From positions 1 through 43,444 of the forward strand of contig JAFAMK010000023.1 of NCBI GenBank assembly GCA_019233415.1: a DNA stretch of 43,444 nucleotides, given 5' to 3'. Below the pieces are notes generated by a model. That model was not told the DNA's origin. It was given only the letters and a program-made list of their open reading frames with translations, and ran no database searches. The stretch is from Vulcanimicrobiota bacterium (GTDB lineage Bacteria > Vulcanimicrobiota > Vulcanimicrobiia > Vulcanimicrobiales > Vulcanimicrobiaceae). A program made the translations under genes and the position numbers. Below are positions 10,569 through 26,927 of the stretch, in pieces; position 1 is the first letter of the stretch, and each line of letters begins with the position of its first letter.

Positions 10569-10975
10569 CGACCATCCATCGCGTGCTTGCCGCCACGACG
10601 CTGCTGGCTTCGCTCTGCGCCTGCTCCACCGCACCGCAGTCGAGCATCGGCCTCATCGACACCAATCGCATCTCGTCGAACTGGCCGAAGTTCCAGAACT
10701 ACGAGAACCAGCTCTCCGCCGATGCGCAGGCGATCGACCGTTCCACGAAGTCGCCGCGTGAGAAGGACGCCGCGCACGCGGCGCTGCAGCGCCGCTTCCA
10801 AGAGGCGCAGGCGGAGCTGAGCAACGACGTCAGCACGGCCGCGAAGCAGGTCGCCGCCGACAAGCACCTGACGTACATCTTCACCCGCCAGTACGTCGGC
10901 TACGGCGGCGTCGACATCACCGCCGACGTCGAGAAGATCCTCCAGATCCAAGAGAAGCCGAGCCCAACCCCGTGA
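10565..10975 (+). CDS. Short Skp/OmpH-like lipoprotein
   Basis: Lipobox-like LCAC, IGLIDTNRI and YGGVDITADV. Confidence 0.7.
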   Translation: MTTIHRVLAATTLLASLCACSTAPQSSIGLIDTNRISSNWPKFQNYENQLSADAQAIDRSTKSPREKDAAHAALQRRFQEAQAELSNDVSTAAKQVAADKHLTYIFTRQYVGYGGVDITADVEKILQIQEKPSPTP

Positions 10976-12006
10976 GCCTGAACCCGCTGGGCACGCTGGG
11001 AGAACTCGCCCAGCGGACCGGCGGCCGCGTCATCGGCGATCCGGCGACCGTCATCGAGCGGATCACCGCGGTCGACGACGCCGATGCGACGACGCTGACC
11101 TTCGCAGTCGACGAACGCTATCTGCGCGCCGCGCTCGGCTCGCGCGCCGCGGCCGTGTTGACCGACGAGGCGCTCGTCGCCGACGGCGAGCCGCTCGCGA
11201 AGCCCGTGCTGACCGTGCCGTCCGCGCGCATTGCGCTCGCGGCGCTGCTCGCGTCGCTCGAACCGCCGCGGCCGCAGGGACCGTTCGTGCACCCGACCGC
11301 GGCCGTCGACCCGACGGCGCAGATCGGTAACGGCGTCTGGATCGGCCCGCACGTCGCGGTCGGCGCGCGGTCGCGCGTCGGCGACCGCTCGGTGCTCGCG
11401 GCCGGGGTCGTCATCGGGAACGACGCGGCGGTCGGTGCCGACTGCCACGTCCACCCGCGCGCGTACCTCGCCGACCGCTGCGCCATGGGCGACCGGGTCG
11501 TGCTCCAGGCCGGCGCCGTGATCGGGAGCGACGGGTTCGGCTGGGCGTTCCTCGACGGGCGGCTGGTGAAGATTCCGCAGGTCGGGACGGTCGAGCTCGG
11601 CGACGACGTCGAGATCGGCGCGAACACGTGCATCGACCGCGCGCAGACCGGCGTCACCTCGGTCGGGAACGGGACGAAGATCGACAACCTGTGCCAGATC
11701 GGGCACAACGCGCGCATCGGCAGCCACAGCGCGATTGCCGCGTTCGCCGGCCTCGCCGGGACGACGACGATCGGCGACTACGTGCGCGTCGCGGGCTCGG
11801 TCCTGTTCAAGGGCCACATCACGATCGGCGACCGCGTGACGATCGCCGGGGCCTCGCACATCTGGGGCGACGTCCCGGACGACGCGTTCGTGAGCGGGCG
11901 CCCGGCGCAGAACCACCGCGACGAGGTGCGGCTCCAGGCCTACCTCCGGCGGCTGCCGAAGCTGTTCGCTCGGGTCGACGCGCTTGAAAAGCAAGACCCC
12001 GACTGA
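10972..12006 (+). CDS. lpxD: UDP-3-O-(3-hydroxyacyl)glucosamine N-acyltransferase
   Basis: Hexapeptide repeats with IGSDGFG, EIGANTCIDR and TKIDNLCQIGHN. Confidence 0.95.
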   Translation: MSLNPLGTLGELAQRTGGRVIGDPATVIERITAVDDADATTLTFAVDERYLRAALGSRAAAVLTDEALVADGEPLAKPVLTVPSARIALAALLASLEPPRPQGPFVHPTAAVDPTAQIGNGVWIGPHVAVGARSRVGDRSVLAAGVVIGNDAAVGADCHVHPRAYLADRCAMGDRVVLQAGAVIGSDGFGWAFLDGRLVKIPQVGTVELGDDVEIGANTCIDRAQTGVTSVGNGTKIDNLCQIGHNARIGSHSAIAAFAGLAGTTTIGDYVRVAGSVLFKGHITIGDRVTIAGASHIWGDVPDDAFVSGRPAQNHRDEVRLQAYLRRLPKLFARVDALEKQDPD

Positions 12007-12010
12007 ACTC

Positions 12011-12862
12011 GTGCAGTATCAAACGACATTGCGCGACGCGATCGCGTTCGAAGGCGCTGGGCTCCACACCGGCGCGGCCGCGCGGGTCCGCGTCCTCCCC
12101 GCCCCGGCCGGCCACGGCCTGCGCTTCCGCCTCGACGACGCGGTCGAGTTTCCCGCGCGCGCCGACTACGTCGTCGACACGGTGCGCGCGACGGTCCTCG
12201 GCTGCGGCGAGCACCGCGTCTCGACCGTCGAGCACCTGCTCTCGGCGCTGCTCGGCTGCGGCGTCGACAACGCGCTGATCGCGGTCGACGGTCCCGAGAT
12301 CCCGGTCAGAGACGGGAGCGCGAAGGAATTTGCCGATGCCATCGACGCGGTCGGGCTGGCCACGCTCCACGAAGCGCGCGTGCGCTGGATCCCGACCGAG
12401 GCGCGCGTCTTCCGCGACGGCGAGAAGTTGCTGGTCGTCGCGCCGGCGGCGTCGTTCCGCGTGCGCATGACGGTCGACTACCCGCAGCCGATCGGCGCGC
12501 AGTACGTCGAGGCCGAGATCACGCCCGAGGCCTATCGCACCGAGGTCGCGCCGAATCGCACCTTCGGGTTCCTGCACGAGGTCGAGGCGCTGATGAAGCG
12601 CGGGCTCGCGCAGGGCGGGACGCTCGAGAATGCGGTCGTGTTCGGTCCCGACGGACCGCTCGCGCCGCTGCGCTCGCCGCACGAGCCGGCGCGCCACAAG
12701 GTGCTCGACTTGGTCGGGGACTTCGCGCTGCTCGGCGCCTACCCGCAGTGCGAGGTCATCGCGATCAAGAGCGGGCACAAGCTCCACTGCACCGCGGTGC
12801 GCGAGCTCCGTCCCTTCGGCGACGGTGAAGCGGCGGCCGCGATTTCTTCCGCCAGCTCGTGA
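12011..12862 (+). CDS. lpxC: UDP-3-O-acyl-N-acetylglucosamine deacetylase
   Basis: QTTL, GAGLHTG, STVEHLLSAL, RHKVLDLVGD and SGHKLH. Start at GTG 12011. Confidence 0.95.
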   Translation: MQYQTTLRDAIAFEGAGLHTGAAARVRVLPAPAGHGLRFRLDDAVEFPARADYVVDTVRATVLGCGEHRVSTVEHLLSALLGCGVDNALIAVDGPEIPVRDGSAKEFADAIDAVGLATLHEARVRWIPTEARVFRDGEKLLVVAPAASFRVRMTVDYPQPIGAQYVEAEITPEAYRTEVAPNRTFGFLHEVEALMKRGLAQGGTLENAVVFGPDGPLAPLRSPHEPARHKVLDLVGDFALLGAYPQCEVIAIKSGHKLHCTAVRELRPFGDGEAAAAISSASS

Positions 12863-12884
12863 GCGACCGAAGGTAGAGACGCGC

Positions 12885-13358
12885 GTGCAGACGCTCGACG
12901 TGCGCGAGATCATGAAGATCTTGCCGCACCGTTACCCGATGCTGCTGATCGACCGCATCACGGAACTCGTGCCGATGGTGCGCGCGCGCGGCTACAAGAA
13001 CGTCACCGCGAACGAGCAGATGCTGGTCGGGCACTTCCCGGGGAACCCGCTCTTTCCGGGCGTCTACATGATCGAAGCGCTCGCGCAGCTCGGCGGCACG
13101 ACGATCATCGAGCCCGGCGAGATGGCGCGCAAGGTGCCGTACCTGGCGGCGATCGACAAGGCGAAGTTCCGCCGTCCCGTCATTCCGGGCGACCGGCTCG
13201 ACATGGAGGCGCGCGTCCTCAAGACGAAGCTGAACATCGGCTGGGTCGCGGTCGACGCGAGCGTCGACGGCAAGCCGGTCGTCAGCGCCGAGCTGACCTT
13301 CTCGGTCGCCAGCGACCCGTCGGCGTTCGCCTACGACGCCACGGTGCTGCACCTGTGA
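12885..13358 (+). CDS. fabZ: 3-hydroxyacyl-ACP dehydratase
   Basis: LPHRYPMLLIDRI, GHFPGNPLFPGV.MIEALAQ and KFRRPVIPGD. Start at GTG 12885. Confidence 0.95.
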   Translation: MQTLDVREIMKILPHRYPMLLIDRITELVPMVRARGYKNVTANEQMLVGHFPGNPLFPGVYMIEALAQLGGTTIIEPGEMARKVPYLAAIDKAKFRRPVIPGDRLDMEARVLKTKLNIGWVAVDASVDGKPVVSAELTFSVASDPSAFAYDATVLHL

Positions 13359-14128
13359 TCCACCCGAGCGCGATCGTCCACCCGAACGCGAGCATCGCCA
13401 AGAACGTCGACATCGGACCGTACTGCGTCGTCGGCGAGCACGTGACGATCGGCGCGCGCGCGACGCTGCTCGCGCACGTCGTCATCACGGGGCGCACGAC
13501 GATCGGCGAGGACGCGGTGATCCATCCGTTCTGCTCGATCGGCGCGCCCTCGCAGGACCGCAAGGCGGAAGAGGGTGAGCTGGCCTACACGACGATCGGC
13601 GCACGCACGGTGATCCGCGAGTACGTCTCGATCCACCGCGGCAGCGCCGACGCCGGCGGCGTCACCTCGGTCGGCGACGACTGCCTGATCCTCGCGTACG
13701 GGCACATCGCGCACAACTGCCACGTCGGCAACGGCGTGACGATGTCGAACCTCGCGCAGCTCGCCGGCCACGTCGTCGTCGAAGACAACGCGCTGGTCGG
13801 TGCGATGGCGGGCGTACACCAGTTCGTGCGGATCGGCCAGTACGCGTTCGTCGGCGGCTACACGAAGCTCGGCCGCGACCTGCCGCCGTATCTCCTGGCC
13901 GACGGCAATCCCGCGGAAGTCTACGGGCTCAACAGCGTCGGCCTGCGCCGTGCCGGCTTCTCGCGCGAGGCGCTGGTCGAGCTGAAGGACGCGTACAAGA
14001 CGATCTACCGCTCCGAGAAGAACGTCTCGCAGGCGGTCGAGGCGTTGCGCGGGACCGTCCAAACCGACGAAGGCCGCTCGCTGCTCGCCTTCTTGGAAGC
14101 CGAGTCGGAGCGGGGCATCCTGAAGTAA
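13355..14128 (+). CDS. lpxA: Acyl-ACP:UDP-N-acetylglucosamine O-acyltransferase
   Basis: MIHPSAIVHP, HIAHNC, QLAGHV, VHQFVRIG and GLNSVGLRR. Confidence 0.95.
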   Translation: MIHPSAIVHPNASIAKNVDIGPYCVVGEHVTIGARATLLAHVVITGRTTIGEDAVIHPFCSIGAPSQDRKAEEGELAYTTIGARTVIREYVSIHRGSADAGGVTSVGDDCLILAYGHIAHNCHVGNGVTMSNLAQLAGHVVVEDNALVGAMAGVHQFVRIGQYAFVGGYTKLGRDLPPYLLADGNPAEVYGLNSVGLRRAGFSREALVELKDAYKTIYRSEKNVSQAVEALRGTVQTDEGRSLLAFLEAESERGILK

Positions 14129-14139
14129 TCACATCACCC

Positions 14140-15246
14140 ATGCGCGTCTTTTTCTCGACGGGCGAGGCATCGGGTGAGCTGCTCGCGTCGGACTTGTTGG
14201 GTGCGATGCGCGAACGCGTGCCGGTCGACGCCGAAGGGATCGGCGACGCGCGGCTGGAGCACGCCGGCGTGCGGATCGTGCAGCGCACGCGCGGCTGGGC
14301 GTCGCTCGGGATCGTCGACGCGCTGCGCAAAGTTCCGCGGCTGTGGACGGTCATGGCGCGCACCGCGCTGCGGCTGCGGCGCGCGCCGCCGGACCTCGTC
14401 GTGCTGGTCGACTTCGGCGCGTTCAACCTGCGCTTGGCGCGCACGCTGCGATTGCTCGGCTTTCCGAAGCCGATCGTCTACTACGCGCCGCCGTCGGCGT
14501 GGCTCGACAGCGTCAAGCGCGCGCGGCTCGTCGCCGCGGCGTGCGACGCGCTGACGATCTTCCGGCACCAGGCCGAGTTCTACCGCTCGCGCGGGCTCCC
14601 CATCGGCTACGTCGGGCACCCGCTCGTCTCGACGATCGCGCCGCGCGCGCCGCGCGCCGCGCCGCCGCCGGACGGCGGGCTCGTCGCGCTGCTCCCCGGC
14701 AGCCGTCACGGCGAGATCGAGCGGCACACGCCGCGGCTGCTCGACGCGCTCGCGCGCGTGCGCGAGGTGCGCCCGAACGTGCGCGCGCAGTTCGTCGCGA
14801 TCGACAACGACGCGCAGGCGCACATCGAGCACCTGCTCTCGTTCCGCTCGCCGCTTCCGGTCGCGATCGTGCGCGACGCGCGCGCGGCGCTGCGCGACGC
14901 CGACGCGGCCATGGTCGCGTCGGGCACCGCAGTTCTCGAAGCGGCGCTGCTCGAAACGCCTGCGGTCGCGCTGTACGTGTTGTCCGACGCGCAGGCGCGC
15001 ATCGCGCGCCGCGTCTACCACGGCACGTACGTCACGCTGCCGAACCTCGTGCTCGACGAACCGCTCGTCCCCGAATTGCTGCAGGAAGCGGCGACGCCCG
15101 CCGCGCTCGCGGAGGCGGTTCTCGCGCTGCTCGACGACCCCGCGCGCCAGCGCGAAGGCTATGCGCGGATGCGTGCCGCGCTCGGCCCGCCCGACGCGCT
15201 GCGCCGCAACGCCGACTGGGTGCTCGCCGCGGCGGGGCGCGCGTAG
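14140..15246 (+). CDS. lpxB: Lipid-A-disaccharide synthase
   Basis: GEASGE, LVDFGAFN, YVGHPL, LLPGSR..EI, ASGTAVLE, LPNL and VPELLQ. Confidence 0.92.
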   Translation: MRVFFSTGEASGELLASDLLGAMRERVPVDAEGIGDARLEHAGVRIVQRTRGWASLGIVDALRKVPRLWTVMARTALRLRRAPPDLVVLVDFGAFNLRLARTLRLLGFPKPIVYYAPPSAWLDSVKRARLVAAACDALTIFRHQAEFYRSRGLPIGYVGHPLVSTIAPRAPRAAPPPDGGLVALLPGSRHGEIERHTPRLLDALARVREVRPNVRAQFVAIDNDAQAHIEHLLSFRSPLPVAIVRDARAALRDADAAMVASGTAVLEAALLETPAVALYVLSDAQARIARRVYHGTYVTLPNLVLDEPLVPELLQEAATPAALAEAVLALLDDPARQREGYARMRAALGPPDALRRNADWVLAAAGRA

Positions 15247-15252
15247 CCTCCC

Positions 15253-15978
15253 GTGCGCATCTATCACACCAGCGATTTGCACGACCGGCGGCACGTCGCC
15301 GCGCCGATCAACGCGCTGCGCGCCGCGAAGCCGGGGCTGTACGTCGACTGCGGCGACAGCCTGCGCGGCTCGCAGACGGTGTTCCACCGCAGCGAGCCGA
15401 TCATCGCCGAGCTGGACGCCGCGCACGTCGACGTGCAGGCGATGGGGAACCGCGAGTTCCACTACCTGTTCGGCGCGCTGCGGTCGCGCGTCGCGCGCAT
15501 GCATCATCCGCTCGTGTGCGCGAACCTGCGCGACGCGAAGGGGCGTGCGCTCCCGTTCACCGCGGACGTCGTCCTTCGACGAGCTCAGGATGACGGGGAG
15601 TGGACGCTGCGGTTCTTCGGGCTGCTGGTCGTGCAGTATCCGGCCGGCTCGCCGTGGGAGCGCGTCTTCTCATGGCGGTTCGACGACCCGCTCGACGTCG
15701 CGGCGCGCATCGCCGACGACACGCCGCCCGGCACGACGCTGATCGCGCTCTCGCACCTCGGTTTGCGCCACGACCGTTTGCTCGCGCAGCGCGTTCCGCG
15801 GCTCGACCTCATCCTCGGCGGGCACAGCCACGACATGCTCGCCGCGCCGGAACTCGTCGGCGGCGTGCCGATCGTGCACGCCGGGCCGTACGGCGCCTAC
15901 GCGTCGCGCACCGACCTGGTGAAGGACGCGAACGGCCGCGCGCGGATCGCCGACTTCGCGCTCGAGCCGCTGCGATGA
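15253..15978 (+). CDS. Calcineurin-like metallophosphoesterase (stand-alone 5'-nucleotidase/UshA N-terminal-like domain); candidate UDP-diacylglucosamine hydrolase
   Basis: HTSDLH, VDCGD, GNREF, LSHLG and ILGGHSH. No signal peptide and no C-terminal substrate domain. Confidence 0.8.
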   Translation: MRIYHTSDLHDRRHVAAPINALRAAKPGLYVDCGDSLRGSQTVFHRSEPIIAELDAAHVDVQAMGNREFHYLFGALRSRVARMHHPLVCANLRDAKGRALPFTADVVLRRAQDDGEWTLRFFGLLVVQYPAGSPWERVFSWRFDDPLDVAARIADDTPPGTTLIALSHLGLRHDRLLAQRVPRLDLILGGHSHDMLAAPELVGGVPIVHAGPYGAYASRTDLVKDANGRARIADFALEPLR

Positions 15979-17054
15979 GCGGCACGATCTTGTTCGTCAC
16001 CAACGGGCACGGCGAAGCGGCGATCGCGGCGCGCATCGCGCAGGAGACGCGCGCGCTCGGCGACCTGCGCACCGAGCACTTCGGGCTGGTCGGCGAACGG
16101 CTCGGCGGCGGCGACTTTCCCGACGTCGGGCCGCAGCGCGCGATGCCGTCGGGCGGGCTCGTTGCGATGGGAAACGTGCGCGCGTTCGCGCGTGACCTCG
16201 GCGCGGGATTTGTCGGCTTGTTCGTGCGGCAGGTGCGCTTTCTGCGCGGCGCGCGCGGGCGCTACGCGGCGGTCGTCGCGGTCGGCGACGCGTACGCGTG
16301 CGCGCTCGCACGCCTCGCCGGCCCGCCGCTCGCGTTCGTCGGCACGGCGAAGAGCGTCTACGTCGCGCCGTACGGCCCGGGCGAACGCCGCATCCTGCGC
16401 GGCGCGCGCCGCATCTTCGTGCGCGACGCGGCGACCGCCGCGGCGCTGCAGCGCCATGGCGTCGCCGCCGAGGCACCCGGCAACGTGATCGTCGACTTGC
16501 TCGCGAGCAATGCGCGCGTCGATTGGAACGCGCCGCTGCGGCTCGCGCTGTTGCCAGGCTCGCGCGAGCGCGCCTACGCGGACGCGCTGCGGCTGGCCCA
16601 GGTCGTCGCGCGCCTGCGCGCGCGTGGGCTCGCGCCCGACGCGGTGCTCTCGATCGCGCCGAACCTCGAGCCGGCGCGCTTCGCACCGGCCCTCGAACGC
16701 GGCGCGCTGCGCGCCTGGACCGGCCCGCTCGGCGCGCTCTTGCACGATGCGACGCTCGTCCTCGGCCAGAGCGGAACCGCCAACGAAGCCGCAGCGGCGG
16801 AAGGGCTCCCGGTCGTCGCGCTCGAGCTGGACGGCGCGCCGCGCGACGCCTGGTACCGCAAGCGGCAGATGGGCCTGCTCGGCGCGGCGCTCCAGATCGT
16901 GCCGGGCGATCCGGACCGCGCGGCGGACGCCGTCGCCGCGCTGCTCGGCGACCCCGCGCGGCGCGAACGGATGGGCGCGGTCGGTCGCGAGCGGATGGGG
17001 CCGCCGGGCGGCGCGCGGGCGATCGCGCAGGCCGTCGCGGGCCTCGCGGCATGA
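15975..17054 (+). CDS. Lipid-A-disaccharide-synthase-related GT-B glycosyltransferase (TIGR03492-like)
   Basis: ATG 15975 overlaps the previous stop (ATGA). Motifs LFVTNGHGE, MPSGG, VAVGD, FVGTAKS, LLPGSR and GTANE. Confidence 0.75.
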   Translation: MSGTILFVTNGHGEAAIAARIAQETRALGDLRTEHFGLVGERLGGGDFPDVGPQRAMPSGGLVAMGNVRAFARDLGAGFVGLFVRQVRFLRGARGRYAAVVAVGDAYACALARLAGPPLAFVGTAKSVYVAPYGPGERRILRGARRIFVRDAATAAALQRHGVAAEAPGNVIVDLLASNARVDWNAPLRLALLPGSRERAYADALRLAQVVARLRARGLAPDAVLSIAPNLEPARFAPALERGALRAWTGPLGALLHDATLVLGQSGTANEAAAAEGLPVVALELDGAPRDAWYRKRQMGLLGAALQIVPGDPDRAADAVAALLGDPARRERMGAVGRERMGPPGGARAIAQAVAGLAA

Positions 17055-18241
17055 GCCGGGTCTCGGCGACGGCGCTGGTCGTTCTGTTCGCGATCATCCC
17101 GCTCTACGGCACGTTCGGCGCGCTCGACCCGGATCGGCCGCCGATCCCGCCGCTCGTTCCGCAGGCCGTGACCGTCGCGATCGCGCTGGTCGCGCTCGCC
17201 GCGATGCTCGCCGTCGTCCCGGCGGCTTGGCGTGCCGCGCGGCGCGACACGCTGACCATCGCCCTCTTCGCCCCGAGCATCGCGATCGGGCTCGCCGGGC
17301 TCATCGGCTTCGATCCGCCGACCGGGCTCGGCCTCGCGCTGCTCGCGGCCGGCTTCGCCGCGGCCGGACTGGCTGTGGCGCGCGGGGCCGGCCCTGCGCT
17401 CGTCCGGCGCTGCGTGCGGGCGTTGCTCTGGTCGGCGCTGGTAGGGTCCCTGATCGCACTGGCGATGCTGGTCGCCCACCGACCGGCCGCGCTCTACGCC
17501 TACAACAACGGCCGGGCTGTCGGGACGTTCTTGAACCCGAACGAGCTGGCAGCGTTCGCGCTGGCCACGCTCGGCGTTGCGGCGCCGCTCGCCGCCGCGA
17601 GCCGCGGGCGAGACCGGCTCGCGACCGCATGCGCGGTCGTCCTGCTCATCACGCTATTCGCGACGTTCTCGCGCTGGGGCGTCTTCGCGGCGGTGTGCGG
17701 GGTCGTCGTCTACGCGCTCGCCGCCCGGGCGCGCGTGCTGCTGGTCGGCGCGGTCGCCGTCGCGGTGGCCGGGATCGCGCTGAACCAGGTCGCCGGCGCG
17801 CTGCACCACAACCCGCGCGACACCGAGGCCCGGGTGGTCGCCTGGCAGGCCGGGCTGACGACCTTCGAGCGGTTCCCGCTCACCGGGGTCGGGCCGTTCG
17901 CCTACGGCCGCACCTACGACGCGTTCCGCCCGCCCGACGGGCCGGGGCCGAAGACCCCGGTGGCCTTCGATCCGCACTCGCTGCCGATCGCCTACGCCGC
18001 CCACTCCGGCCTCGCGGCCCTCGCGAGCTTCGCGGTGCTCATCACGATCCTGGTGCGCGGGGCGCTGCGGAGTGCGCGCGGCGCCGCGCCGCGCAGCCGC
18101 GCCGTCGCGATCGGCCTCGCGGCGGGGCTGGTCGCGCTGCTCGTCGACGGCGCGATCAACACGATCAGCCTGGTCATTCCGCTCCTGATCCAGGTCGGGC
18201 CGCTCGCCCTTGCCGTAGTACGGACCGATGCGCTCGACTAA
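17051..18241 (+). CDS. O-antigen ligase / Wzy_C family polytopic membrane protein
   Basis: Many TM segments with RAVGTFLNPNELA, TFSR, R...W...P.TGVG and PHS. Start at ATG 17051 (ATGA overlap). Confidence 0.8.
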   Translation: MSRVSATALVVLFAIIPLYGTFGALDPDRPPIPPLVPQAVTVAIALVALAAMLAVVPAAWRAARRDTLTIALFAPSIAIGLAGLIGFDPPTGLGLALLAAGFAAAGLAVARGAGPALVRRCVRALLWSALVGSLIALAMLVAHRPAALYAYNNGRAVGTFLNPNELAAFALATLGVAAPLAAASRGRDRLATACAVVLLITLFATFSRWGVFAAVCGVVVYALAARARVLLVGAVAVAVAGIALNQVAGALHHNPRDTEARVVAWQAGLTTFERFPLTGVGPFAYGRTYDAFRPPDGPGPKTPVAFDPHSLPIAYAAHSGLAALASFAVLITILVRGALRSARGAAPRSRAVAIGLAAGLVALLVDGAINTISLVIPLLIQVGPLALAVVRTDALD

Positions 18242-18800
18242 GCCGGCGGCCGCCTTCGGGCTGATCCTCGCCCTGGCCGCCTGCACTCCGAACAAGCCCG
18301 AGACGGCCGCGTCGCCGGCCCCGACCGCGCGCCCGGTTCCCTCGGCGAGCGCGACGCAGGTTCCGCTCCACATCGAAACGCACGGCGGCAACGGGCAGTA
18401 CGTCACGATTGTGGAGACGAACCACGGCCGCAAGGTCTACACGATCCGGGCGCTGTCGGGGACGATGCAGCGCACCGGGACGAACGAAGCGACCGGGGAC
18501 CTGGAGCAGCCGCACATCACGTTCGTCGACCGCGGCGGGACGACGACGATCGCCGACGCACCGAAGGCCCACGTCGCCGAACGGGACAAGACCGTCGTGA
18601 TGACGGGCGGCGTGCACGCCGTCACCAGCGGCGGGAGCGTCCTGCGCTGCGACACCTTGACCTACTTTGGCAACACCGAACGGTTCCACGGCGAGGGCAA
18701 CGTCAACCTCACCGCGCCGAACGGGCTCGAACTGAACGGCCGGTATCTCGACGGCGACGTGAAACTGCAAGACGTGAACGTGACAGGGAATCCACGGTGA
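18228..18800 (+). CDS. lptC: LptC/LptA-family beta-jellyroll LPS export protein with lipoprotein-like signal
   Basis: LALAAC lipobox and beta-jellyroll-like repeats (VVMTGGVHAV, LRCDTLTY, GNVNL); overlaps lptB. Confidence 0.7.
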   Translation: MRSTKPAAAFGLILALAACTPNKPETAASPAPTARPVPSASATQVPLHIETHGGNGQYVTIVETNHGRKVYTIRALSGTMQRTGTNEATGDLEQPHITFVDRGGTTTIADAPKAHVAERDKTVVMTGGVHAVTSGGSVLRCDTLTYFGNTERFHGEGNVNLTAPNGLELNGRYLDGDVKLQDVNVTGNPR

Positions 18801-19540
18801 CCGACCGCGACCGGATCGTCCTCAGCTCGCTCGTGAAGCGCTACGGGCAGCGCACCGTCGTCAAGGGCATCAGCGCCGAGGTGCACCGCGGCGAGGTCGT
18901 CGGCTTGCTCGGCCCCAACGGCGCCGGCAAGACGACGACGTTCTACATGGTCGTCGGCCTGATCCGGCCCGACGGGGGGACCGTCGTGCTCGAACGCGAT
19001 GGCACGGCGCGCGAGATCACCGGCGCGCCGATGCACGAGCGAGCGCGCGCCGGGATCGGCTACCTGGCGCAGGAGAACTCTATCTTCCGCAAGCTCTCCG
19101 TCGGCGACAACCTGCGCCTGATCTGGGAGATGAACGGCGTCCCGAGCGCCGAGCGCGAGCGCCGGCTTCCCGAATTGCTCGCCGAGTTCGGGCTCTCCGA
19201 GTTCGTCGACGCGCGCGGCGACTCGCTCTCGGGCGGCGAGCGGCGGCGCGTCGAGATCGCGCGCGCGATCGCGACCGAGCCGGCGTTCCTGCTACTCGAC
19301 GAGCCGTTCACCGGAATCGACCCCATCGCCGTCGCCGACATCCAGGCGATGATCCGCCAACTGCGCGATCGCGGCCTCGGCGTGCTGATCACCGACCACC
19401 AAGTGCGCGAGACGCTCGCGATCGTCGACCGCGCCTACATCCTCAACGACGGGAAGATCGAGGTCAGCGGGACCGCGCAGGACGTCCTCGACTCGCCGGT
19501 CGCGCGCAAGTTCTACCTCGGCGAAAGCTTTCGCCTGTGA
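18797..19540 (+). CDS. lptB: LPS export ABC transporter ATP-binding protein
   Basis: GPNGAGKTTTFYM, LSGGERRRVEIAR, LLDEPF.G.DP, ITDH.VRETL and YLGESF. Confidence 0.95.
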   Translation: MTDRDRIVLSSLVKRYGQRTVVKGISAEVHRGEVVGLLGPNGAGKTTTFYMVVGLIRPDGGTVVLERDGTAREITGAPMHERARAGIGYLAQENSIFRKLSVGDNLRLIWEMNGVPSAERERRLPELLAEFGLSEFVDARGDSLSGGERRRVEIARAIATEPAFLLLDEPFTGIDPIAVADIQAMIRQLRDRGLGVLITDHQVRETLAIVDRAYILNDGKIEVSGTAQDVLDSPVARKFYLGESFRL

Positions 19541-20682
19541 CCGAGGCGCGAACGCTCGGAAGAACTGCGCCCACGCGCGCTTGGCCGCCGACGATCCTGG
19601 ACCGCTACCTCGTCTCCGAGCTCGGCGGCCCGTTTCTGTTCGGTCTCTCCGCCTTCACGCTGATCTTCGTCGCGACGCAAATCCTCGCGATCGGACGGCT
19701 CGTCTCCGAAGAGCACGCGCCGCTGTGGGCGGCGGTCGAGTACTTCCTGTGGGACATGCCCTACTATCTGCTGCTGGTGATCCCGATGGCGATGCTGCTC
19801 GGGACGCTGCTCGCGATGCAGCGGCTCTCGAGCGAGAGCGAGATCACCGCGATGAAGGCCGGCGGCATCTCGCTCTCGCGCATCGTCGCACCGCTGCTGA
19901 TCGTCGGGATCGTCGTGTCGGTCGTGTCGCTGGCGATCCAAGAGCTGTTCGTGCCGTTCGCGAACGACAAGGCCGCGTACGTGCGCCAGCAAGCGATCGA
20001 GCACGTCTCGCCGGCGTCGTCGAACCTGCAAGCGGTCACGCCGCTCCCCGGCGGCGGAAAGCAGATCACGATCGCCGGCGGGCTGGACGTCGCGACGCAG
20101 ACGCTGCTCGGCGTGACGGTGATTCGCTACGACGCGGCGCAGAAGCCGGTCGACTTCGTCGTCGCCGACCGCGCGCGCTACGTCGCGCCGACGTGGACGT
20201 TCGAAAACTCGACGACGTATCATTTCAATCCCGACGGCTCGACGGTGACGCAGACCGCGCCGACGCTCGTCGTCGACATCGGTGAGCGCCCGAACCAGAT
20301 CGCGAAGCAGTCGATCAACATCACCAACCCCGAAGACCTCTCGCGCGCCGAGATTCGCGAGCGCCTGCAGTCCGGACAGCTCTCGCCGCAGCAGCAGCTC
20401 ACGTTCACCGCGACGTACGCGTCGAAGCTGGCGCGGCCGTTCGCGGCGTTCGTGTTCACGCTGATCGCGGTTCCGTTCGGGCTGCGCCCGGTGCGCGGCG
20501 GCGGAACGGGGCTCGGCTTCGGCCTCGCGGTCGCGATCGTGTTCGTCTACTACGTGATCTCGACGATCTTCCTGACGGTCGGCTCGATGGCGGCCGGGCT
20601 CGCCGGCCCCGCGGCGTGGGCGCCGAACGTCATCTTCACCGTGATCGGCGCGTGGCTGCTGCGCCGCGCGTCGCGGGTCTGA
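19537..20682 (+). CDS. LPS export permease LptF/LptG family
   Basis: ILDRYL, SEITAMKAGGISL, a periplasmic domain, and AWAPNVIF. Single copy in this window. Confidence 0.9.
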   Translation: MTEARTLGRTAPTRAWPPTILDRYLVSELGGPFLFGLSAFTLIFVATQILAIGRLVSEEHAPLWAAVEYFLWDMPYYLLLVIPMAMLLGTLLAMQRLSSESEITAMKAGGISLSRIVAPLLIVGIVVSVVSLAIQELFVPFANDKAAYVRQQAIEHVSPASSNLQAVTPLPGGGKQITIAGGLDVATQTLLGVTVIRYDAAQKPVDFVVADRARYVAPTWTFENSTTYHFNPDGSTVTQTAPTLVVDIGERPNQIAKQSINITNPEDLSRAEIRERLQSGQLSPQQQLTFTATYASKLARPFAAFVFTLIAVPFGLRPVRGGGTGLGFGLAVAIVFVYYVISTIFLTVGSMAAGLAGPAAWAPNVIFTVIGAWLLRRASRV

Positions 20683-25044: not shown

Positions 25045-25905
25045 GTGGCCCGCATGATCCTGATCGCGGCCGGCATCCTCATCGTCGGCTGGCTCGGCGC
25101 GATTCAACTCGCGTCGTCGGCGGCATACGGCGACCTCGCGGTGCGCCCATCGCTCCCCGCTCTCCTGCACGACGTCGCGCCGAAGCTGCTGCGCCCGTTT
25201 CTCGGCGGAACGGCCGCGCGCGCCGCAGCCGCACTCCACAACGGTGACCTCACAACCGCCGGCGAGTTGATCGCGACGCTCCCCGATGACGCGCCGAGCG
25301 CCGACCTGCGCGGCCAACTCGCCGAAGCACGCGGCGACCGAGACGCCGCGGTGCGCAACTACGTCCACGCCAGCGACGTAATCCGCGCACAAGCACTGAT
25401 CGAAGCAGTCGCGGTAGCCGACCCCGCACGCGCGCTCGCCGACCAACAGCGGCTAGTCGCGGGGTTGCGAGACGATCCGAGCGCTGCAGAGGTAACCGGC
25501 GAAGCGTGGTGGCGTCTCGGCCAACTGCAAGCTGCTGCCGCGTACCGCGAGTCCAATCCTGGGCGTCGTGCCGCGTACGACCGTGCCGCAGAGGCGTCGT
25601 ACGAACGTGCGCTGACGCTCGCGCCGAACGAAGAGACGTACCTGCTTGCCGCCGGCTATCAGTCGCTCAAACTCGGCGCGCTCGCCGCCGCGACGCGCTG
25701 GTACACGCACGCCGTCGAGGTCGTCCCGAACAGCGCCGACGCGTTCGGCGGCCTCGCCTGGAGTGCAGCACTGCGCGGCGACTGCGCGGGTGCGCGTACG
25801 TATCTCGCGCGGTCGCGCGCGCGGCGTGCCGCGAGCGGCGCGACCTCGCGCGACCCGGCCGCCGACCCGCTCGCCGGACCCGCACTGAAGCGCTGCACGA
25901 CGTGA
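25045..25905 (+). CDS. Membrane-anchored TPR-repeat protein
   Basis: N-terminal TM segment and TPR-like helices (EAWWRLGQL, A..SYERAL.LAP, NSADAFGGLA). Confidence 0.65.
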   Translation: MARMILIAAGILIVGWLGAIQLASSAAYGDLAVRPSLPALLHDVAPKLLRPFLGGTAARAAAALHNGDLTTAGELIATLPDDAPSADLRGQLAEARGDRDAAVRNYVHASDVIRAQALIEAVAVADPARALADQQRLVAGLRDDPSAAEVTGEAWWRLGQLQAAAAYRESNPGRRAAYDRAAEASYERALTLAPNEETYLLAAGYQSLKLGALAAATRWYTHAVEVVPNSADAFGGLAWSAALRGDCAGARTYLARSRARRAASGATSRDPAADPLAGPALKRCTT

Positions 25906-26927
25906 TCGTCGCCCTCGACACGCAACTCGCCATCGGCACCGCGACCGGAATCGGCGTCTACCAGCGCGACCTCGCCGCGGCGCTGCTCGCGGAGTCGGTC
26001 GCCGTGCGCGAGTTGCGCCTGCCGGGGCTCGATCCGTGGCGCTTCGACCGCCGCATCCTTTGGGATCAGCTTTTCCTCCCGCTCCAAGCCGCGCGCAGCG
26101 ACGCGACGGTCCTCCACGCGACCGCCGGCACGATGCCGCTCGTACGCACGCTCCCAACGGTCGTGACCGTGCACGACCTCGCCTGGCACCGCGTGCAGGG
26201 CCACACTCGCTCCTACGCGCGCACCTACTTCGGCGCGCTGCAATCGCGCGCGTACCGCACCGCGTCGGCGATCGTGTGCGACTCGCAGTTCAGCGCGGAC
26301 GAGTACCGCGACCTCGTCGACCCGAGCGCGCATGTCGACGTCGTCCACCCAGGGGTCGACCAGCGTTTCGCCGCGCTCACGCGCACGCCAGACGAGTCGC
26401 CGTTCGCGCTCGTCGTTGGCACAGTAGAGGCGCGCAAGAACCTCCTGGTCCTCGTCGAGACGCTCCCCGCGCTCACCTCGCTGCGCCTCGTCTCGGTCGG
26501 ACCGTTCACACCGTACGCCGACATCGTCCGCGCGCGTGCGGCGGAACTCGGCGTCGTCGACCGCGTCGAGCTGCGCGGATACGTCACACGAGCGGAGGTC
26601 GACGACCTTTATGCGCGCGCGGCGTGCGCGCTCGTCCCGTCACGCTACGAGGGCTTCGGCTACGCGCTTGCCGAGGCGCTATGCGCCGGGCTGCCGGCGG
26701 TCGCTGCGCGCTCTTCATCGCTGGTCGAGGTCGCGGGGGACGACGTCGCACTGGTGCCACCGGACGACGCCGTCGCGTGGACCGACGCGATCCGCGGCGT
26801 GCTCACCGACCGTGACGCGGCGCAGACGCGTGCCGGAGCACTGCGTGCGCGCGCGGCAGAACGCTTCAGCTGGCCGACCGCCGCGATCCGGATGATGGAA
26901 ATCTACGCAGACGTCGAGGGGCGGTGA
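25902..26927 (+). CDS. Glycosyltransferase family 4 (GT-B)
   Basis: GTG 25902 overlaps the previous stop. Motifs TGIGVY, VVTVHDL, VGTVEARKN, PSRYEGFG..LAEA and FSW. Confidence 0.9.
   Translation: MIVALDTQLAIGTATGIGVYQRDLAAALLAESVAVRELRLPGLDPWRFDRRILWDQLFLPLQAARSDATVLHATAGTMPLVRTLPTVVTVHDLAWHRVQGHTRSYARTYFGALQSRAYRTASAIVCDSQFSADEYRDLVDPSAHVDVVHPGVDQRFAALTRTPDESPFALVVGTVEARKNLLVLVETLPALTSLRLVSVGPFTPYADIVRARAAELGVVDRVELRGYVTRAEVDDLYARAACALVPSRYEGFGYALAEALCAGLPAVAARSSSLVEVAGDDVALVPPDDAVAWTDAIRGVLTDRDAAQTRAGALRARAAERFSWPTAAIRMMEIYADVEGR

Follow-up and report, generated by a model that had tools for sequence, protein, structure and literature searches.

We analysed a 43,444-nucleotide stretch of DNA from a Vulcanimicrobiota (Eremiobacterota) bacterium, referred to here as the window, which carries a complete outer-membrane cluster. 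Upstream of lpxD lie tamB, bamA and three ompH genes. They are followed on the forward strand by lpxD (10972-12006, TIGR01853), lpxC (11984-12862, TIGR00325), fabZ (12876-13358, TIGR01750), lpxA (13355-14128, TIGR01852) and lpxB (14140-15246, TIGR00215), each above its NCBIfam cut-off, confirming the contiguity of these genes described in a first-pass annotation. LpxB is the lipid A disaccharide synthase and needs lipid X, which it consumes. The lpxB stop at 15246 is separated by the expected 6 nt from a metallophosphoesterase gene (15253-15978, forward strand), which starts with GTG and encodes 241 residues. We found in addition that the stop codon of this gene overlaps (ATGA) the start of an LpxB-related, TIGR03492-like glycosyltransferase gene (15975-17054; 191.8 bits against a cut-off of 219.2), a point absent from that annotation. 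Next on the same strand are an O-antigen ligase (WaaL-like, PF04932; 17051-18241) and the LPS export genes lptC, lptB and lptF/G (18228-20682; Pfam and NCBIfam matches), and beyond lptF/G come DUF3084, a YqgF/RuvX-like gene and an SLH-domain protein that we take to be OmpM. A gene with no Pfam match and a GT4 glycosyltransferase gene, possibly LPS-related, occupy 25045-26927, 3' of the SLH protein. A promoter and terminator scan gave no informative signal.

The 241-residue protein contains the motifs HTSDLH, DCGD, LSHLG and GGHSH, as annotated, together with G65-N66-R67-E68 (GNRE; 15445-15456, forward strand). It is a stand-alone 5'-nucleotidase-type catalytic domain. In the Pfam search PF00149 was its sole match, with no match to PF06230 (LpxI), and the NCBIfam search returned 12 matches, all to 5'-nucleotidase, CpdB, SoxB or UshA models and each below its cut-off. 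None of the LpxH, LpxI or LpxG models was among them, and the protein showed no match to NF033458 (LpxG), no N-terminal membrane helix and no GNHD. With the first metal ligand already at residue 8, there is no space for a signal peptide; the same ligand has a median position of 11 and a 95th percentile of 16 among GNR[ED] proteins (330 of 334 with a scorable motif). The open reading frame stops at the end of the N-domain and contains no PF02872 C-domain, so that the claimed lack of both a signal peptide and a C-terminal domain was borne out.

Fold, active site and family of the GNRE protein

The AlphaFold model of the GNRE protein (pLDDT 97.9) matched 5'-nucleotidase N-domains with Z scores of 25-27 (NadN 27.4, Thermus 5'-nucleotidase 27.3, UshA 26.1), compared with 10.3 over 158 aligned residues for LpxH of P. 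aeruginosa (5B49). The family profile scored 124 bits on E. coli UshA and 2.8 bits on LpxH, and hhalign against LpxH gave a probability of 1%. These fold and profile scores confirm the UshA ancestry suggested earlier. With these values for LpxH and no match to the NCBIfam models of the three known enzymes, membership in LpxH, LpxG or LpxI was ruled out.

The seven dimetal ligands D8, H10, D35, N66, H168, H191 and H193 align to those of UshA and are invariant. R67 aligns to UshA His117 and is the same residue as the Arg of the LpxH GNRD motif, and H70 aligns to UshA Asp120, so the His117-Asp120 pair of UshA is replaced by R67/H70. Q41 aligns to UshA Pro90, a position at which the family has Asn or Gln. 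The title of PDB entry 1OI8, a structure with a P90C-L424C bridge, hints that position 41 may point towards the C-domain that the family lacks.

The Arg was predicted to be invariant, and it was present in 82/82 alignment rows, which had been chosen as short GNRE proteins, and in the GNx motif of 119/120 closest homologues. Arg occupied the position in 47/47 family rows versus His in 45/45 other rows. Of the 150 best cluster representatives, those that are short and full-length (~230-300 aa) were GNRE with few exceptions (e.g. P0228), and the long two-domain proteins were GNHE or GNHD. A quick tree of 92 rows, built on a subset (25/45 Armatimonadota, 35/70 long His and 10/19 short His proteins), placed the 47 Arg proteins on one side of a branch (SH-aLRT 96), where they formed two groups, Vulcanimicrobiota and Armatimonadota. 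The names on close homologues, which include Ca. Elarobacter and Eremiobacteraeota, and the neighbours in this tree assign the window's genome to Vulcanimicrobiota/Eremiobacterota.

Residue 44 is hydrophobic in 98% of the family versus 0% of the 45 His rows, and residue 79 is basic in 98% versus 9%. Relative to the His rows the family is also hydrophobic at 71, 72, 129 and 138 (the alignment over 126-141 being unsure) and basic at 45 and 215, and its median pI is 7.2-7.8 versus 5.8-6.0. The model contains no four-helix lid of the LpxH type, with one short helix (134-139) at that region. Candidate segments gave no amphipathic-helix signal, their hydrophobic moments being no higher than those of ordinary 5'-nucleotidases.

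Like LpxH (TIGR01854; 5B49), the GNRE protein has a calcineurin-like dimetal site with seven ligands, Arg instead of the usual His after GN, about 240 residues, no signal peptide and, as proposed here, the same reaction. Unlike LpxH, with which its similarity is limited to the GHxH motif, it has no helical insertion domain. Because the two belong to different subfamilies, we regard the Arg common to both as convergent. With the N-terminal domains of the UshA/5'-nucleotidase/CpdB/NadN/SoxB family, of which UshA splits UDP-sugars, it shares the fold and the metal ligands; it differs from that family in lacking the signal peptide and the C-terminal specificity domain, in the changes His117 to Arg, Asp120 to His and Pro90 to Asn/Gln, in being more basic with extra hydrophobic residues, and in being encoded among LPS genes. 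A precedent is LpxG (NF033458) of Chlamydia, for which the available text of PMC4807358 describes an unrelated calcineurin-like subfamily recruited for the same step; LpxG, unlike the GNRE protein, has an N-terminal membrane helix and GNHD. LpxI (PF06230) fills the same pathway gap but has an unrelated fold, attacks the beta-phosphate and is placed between lpxA and lpxB.

Several unusual architectures were observed. One database protein, P0153, fuses a GNRE domain to a TIGR03492-like domain. Five apparent LpxB-phosphoesterase fusions in the cluster representatives (P0125, P0148, P0152, P0160, P0204) have partial or degraded domains and were left uncounted because they may be frameshift artefacts. 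In the ESM Atlas clusters, two rows contained look-alikes of 248-263 aa, with Bacillota the commonest named phylum.

Occurrence and gene context across phyla

Our survey of the window's own phylum covered 121 Vulcanimicrobiota genomes, including G000 and the unpublished G110; dropping G110 alters no conclusion. Since the window's own genome is 75% complete, absence claims rest on its relatives. LpxB was found in 120/121 genomes, and LpxH (0/121), LpxI (0/121) and LpxG above cut-off (0/121) were missing, as the first-pass annotation had predicted; E. coli and Caulobacter served as positive controls for the LpxH and LpxI searches, and none of the controls carries a true LpxG. At E 0.001 the query protein matched 120/121 genomes, with long nucleotidases counted among these matches. 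Position relative to lpxB was compared in the 109 genomes with a short-form match among the matches listed. In the window's class LpxB was present in 70/70 genomes and the GNRE gene in 69/70, and in all 69 carriers it is the gene immediately behind lpxB. In G113, the one genome without it, the lpxB match is only partial. LpxG-like genes were absent from the class even below the cut-off (0/70), and weak YaeI-type matches occurred in 44/51 Vulcanimicrobiota genomes outside it.

In the other classes, among the matches listed, the gene lay within 4.2 kb of lpxB on the same strand in 32/40 genomes; in seven of the remaining eight it was on a separate contig, and one had no LpxB row for comparison. 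Across 20 Vulcanimicrobiota regions examined, the gene was present in 17, always as GNRE, with a TIGR03492-like gene just downstream in 16/17. Outside the window's own class it is thus tied more tightly to this glycosyltransferase than to lpxB. A second LpxB-like glycosyltransferase, an LmtA-like methyltransferase or both often stand between lpxB and the GNRE gene. LpxK was found in 0/3 and KdtA in 0/5 Vulcanimicrobiota genomes, and searches of the window's own genome, at its 75% completeness, found no Cdh, kdsC or kdsD.

Other features of these clusters were recorded. The second LpxB-like glycosyltransferase and the ICMT/LmtA-like methyltransferase occur together at L003:4754-6654, L008:9594-11503, L001:9360-11327 and L004:8792-10750, fused in L001 and probably in L004; the window's own genome has a second LpxB-like glycosyltransferase on contig C104. 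In genera g37 and g57, LpxB lies in open frames of 816-851 aa (L002:9309-11843, L017:7496-9943), probably fused to an extra domain. Between fabZ and lpxA we observed a Gfo/Idh/MocA dehydrogenase gene, sometimes with a DegT aminotransferase gene (L001:13199-15275, L003:8756-9751, L012:12020-14178). We take these to resemble GnnA/GnnB, which suggests a diamino-glucose lipid A in other Vulcanimicrobiota classes. A gene of 500-610 aa recurs between lpxD and lpxC (L009:7739-9538, L012:15446-17281, L015:2296-4035, L017:2375-4204) and has no Pfam match apart from a weak DUF3370 in L013. The Vulcanimicrobiota-type cluster is also present in full in a record titled Candidatus Babeliales (L074), whose protein groups within Vulcanimicrobiota, so that the record is perhaps mistitled.

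We also surveyed 91 Armatimonadota genomes around a Capsulimonadaceae record. The family profile matched 75/91 of them at E 1e-40; LpxB was present in 90/91, and LpxI, TIGR03492 and LpxG above cut-off were each found in 0/91. An anti-correlation with LpxG-like genes was uninformative in this phylum, as weak YaeI/YkuE-type matches occurred in 91/91 genomes and in monoderm controls too. GNRE was read in all of the 30 best loci. Within 1.5 kb at these best 30 loci we found kdsC in 22, a GT-C (PMT_2) gene, which appears to be ArnT-like, in 20, and one or both in 28. The context is a kdsD-kdsC-(gene)-glycosyltransferase operon away from lpxB. The lpx clusters of this phylum read lpxD-lpxC-fabZ-lpxA-lpxB-msbA, with LpxK, KdtA and LpxL, and those examined contained no hydrolase gene. 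The expected linkage of homologues to lpx genes thus held beside lpxB in the window's class but not in Armatimonadota, where a Kdo/glycosyltransferase operon takes its place. LmtA-like methyltransferase genes, below cut-off, adjoin lpxB or the GNRE gene in both phyla.

In 16/91 Armatimonadota genomes, all LpxB-positive, the short-form gene gave no match even at E 0.001. G174 has no GNRE match, and G171 has the GNRE gene and no LpxB match. In an LpxB tree, 13 of the 16 gene-less genomes formed two clades (5 and 7 genomes) and one singleton. In 4/5 gene-less genomes checked, kdsC abuts the GT-C gene with nothing in between. LpxH was found in 0/5 of the gene-less genomes searched, and no in-place replacement gene was seen around lpxB (13 loci) or kdsC (5 loci).

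The short GNRE form was likewise not found in 101 Cyanobacteriota genomes. At 1e-25, 68/101 were matched, all in frames of at least 491 aa, and 29 of the 30 loci examined show the His motif. The Synechococcus control has LpxB and gave no LpxH, LpxI or LpxG-like match. The available text of PMC3087551 lists only LpxA/C/D/B for Cyanobacteria and Dictyoglomi and describes cyanobacterial LPS as being without phosphate. PMC5007114, in its accessible part, places LpxI usually inside the lpx cluster of other Terrabacteria, and both it and the accessible part of PMC13018214 report LpxI in diderm Firmicutes. Since the GNRE gene was not found in the 16 LpxB-positive Armatimonadota genomes or in any of the 101 Cyanobacteriota genomes, a route to lipid X by none of the known enzymes must exist. 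The claim that the gene fills the missing step therefore fits the window's class (69/70) and does not extend to these genomes.

An obligate partnership with the TIGR03492 glycosyltransferase was rejected: its family is absent from the surveyed Armatimonadota and present in the Synechococcus and Deinococcus radiodurans controls, and the short form was not found in the surveyed Cyanobacteriota. The D. radiodurans control has a TIGR03492 match and no LpxB match. The TIGR03492-like GT-B glycosyltransferase occurs where KdtA and LpxK are missing (Vulcanimicrobiota, the Synechococcus control) and in none of the 91 KdtA-bearing Armatimonadota, making it a candidate for a first core-sugar transferase that replaces WaaA.

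Proposed function and competing readings

That GNRE proteins are a real, previously undescribed family with a role in LPS is well supported. Gene context and sequence together make it probable that the window's gene encodes a UDP-2,3-diacylglucosamine pyrophosphatase that has converged on LpxH. This UshA-derived dimetal hydrolase, predicted to be cytoplasmic, would supply LpxB with lipid X by hydrolysing UDP-2,3-diacylglucosamine, with release of UMP, standing in for LpxH, LpxI or LpxG. A metal-bound hydroxide, probably with Mn2+, would attack the alpha-phosphate as in LpxH and LpxG, and Arg67 may hold the beta-phosphate like Arg80 of LpxH. Having lost both the His-Asp pair and the C-domain, the enzyme would no longer act as a nucleotidase and would leave UMP and lipid X intact, and the hydrophobic and basic residues gained on the face covered by the C-domain in UshA could bind the acyl chains and the inner membrane.

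Published work on related enzymes would fit a pyrophosphatase that spares monoester products. According to the accessible text of PMC5016852, the LpxH Arg binds the beta-phosphate (the phosphate of lipid X), a metal-bound hydroxide attacks the alpha-phosphate, and the His-to-Arg change is peculiar to LpxH. The superfamily His is required more for monoester than for diester cleavage in the available part of PMC2190708. As described in the accessible sections of PMC7922932, nucleotidase activity is lost both in the isolated CpdB N-domain and in CpdB with His117Ala, and the kcat on CDP-choline is raised in the N-domain. The nucleotidase activity of UshA depends on its own C-domain, and without it UshA retains very low phosphoanhydride activity, in the part of PMC8071527 available. 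LpxG works with His, so the Arg is not required for the reaction.

The wider reading is that this family adds a fourth class to the UDP-2,3-diacylglucosamine pyrophosphatases, recruited independently of the others, derived from a 5'-nucleotidase catalytic domain turned cytoplasmic and inherited from a common ancestor, with a further enzyme acting in cyanobacteria and two Armatimonadota lineages; we give it somewhat better than an even chance. An exported 5'-nucleotidase domain would have moved to the cytoplasm, dropped its C-domain and converged on the Arg of LpxH, and Vulcanimicrobiota and Armatimonadota would both owe the gene to their common ancestor. Both phyla have the gap and the gene but not the same later steps, for which Armatimonadota use LpxK/KdtA in place of the TIGR03492 glycosyltransferase, indicating that the substrate is probably the disaccharide 1-phosphate or an earlier intermediate. 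As the function common to both phyla, a Kdo-specific role was dismissed because KdtA was found in 0/5 Vulcanimicrobiota genomes and neither kdsC nor kdsD in the window's own genome. Against the lipid X reading, another source of lipid X could also serve both phyla, and the lack of an LpxH-type lid leaves the mode of acyl-chain binding unexplained. Because the surveyed genomes share ancestry, the counts cannot be treated as independent. Overall, the genomic predictions of the first-pass annotation stood in the window's phylum, and those on lpxB linkage and gap-filling stood in part.

If the lipid X route is shared with cyanobacteria, the GNRE protein could instead clear nucleotides or modify lipid A. 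In the first case it would assist LPS synthesis as a pyrophosphatase acting on nucleotides or nucleotide sugars, for example on the UDP set free by the glycosyltransferases or on mis-acylated UDP-sugars, and not be the committed source of lipid X. UshA-type domains do cleave UDP-sugars and CDP-alcohols, the gene sits among nucleotide-sugar and glycosyltransferase genes, and it can be lost; but added hydrophobic residues lie close to the active site in this family, the gene is kept in 69/70 genomes with no other lipid X candidate, and nucleotide binding is weak without the C-domain in the accessible text of PMC7922932. We consider this role unlikely.

A cytoplasmic phosphoesterase that modifies lipid A, for example a disaccharide 1-phosphatase readying the site for the adjacent glycosyltransferase, with lipid X coming from an enzyme shared with cyanobacteria, seems to us quite improbable. 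It would account for the glycosyltransferase gene that follows in both phyla (TIGR03492-like at 16/17 loci, GT-C at 20 of the 30 best) and for the P0153 fusion; a modifying enzyme would be dispensable, which fits the losses in Armatimonadota, and Vulcanimicrobiota share the four-enzyme set of cyanobacteria, whose LPS has no phosphate in the available text of PMC3087551. However, the two neighbouring glycosyltransferases are unrelated and each is found without the GNRE gene, the LmtA-like genes beside lpxB or the GNRE gene hint that the 1-phosphate is retained, and the protein has another residue in place of the His on which monoesterase activity in the superfamily depends, as given in the accessible parts of PMC2190708 and PMC7922932.

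It is very improbable that the gene encodes an ordinary phosphodiesterase, or one half of a split 5'-nucleotidase, and that its LPS position is incidental: stand-alone N-domains occur in Bacteroidota and databases name the family 5'-nucleotidase or 2',3'-cyclic phosphodiesterase, but the Bacteroidota forms retain His and are not members of the family, a search of the window's own genome (75% complete) gave no PF02872 C-domain, and in each of the two phyla the gene has a conserved LPS context of its own.

In the Raetz pathway, lipid X formation alone is carried out by enzymes unrelated to one another, and for several Terrabacteria phyla that have LpxA/C/D/B no enzyme for this step is known. If the lipid X reading is true, a fourth class would close this gap for two phyla, bear on the evolution of the LPS outer membrane and provide a clean case of active-site convergence, His having changed to Arg twice. 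In the literature searched, which took in few subscription journals, we found no paper proposing the GNRE enzyme, and the family is unmentioned in the accessible portions of PMC4807358, PMC3087551, PMC5007114, PMC13018214, PMC9758169, PMC13721041 (a 2026 review) and PMC10454023 (a ushA survey). The available text of PMC4807358, which reports the discovery of LpxG, also gives an E. coli lpxH complementation system, and that of PMC9758169 describes a cultured member, Vulcanimicrobium alpinus, whose outer membrane is covered by LPS and whose fatty acids include 3-hydroxy forms.

Yet another enzyme is to be looked for in the lineages without the GNRE gene. One such place for a further lipid X-forming enzyme is an Armatimonadota clade without the gene in which FabZ is fused to LpxA (L152, L153, L155, L157, L160, L162); it is without LpxI and, where tested, LpxH, and keeps LpxB, LpxK and KdtA.
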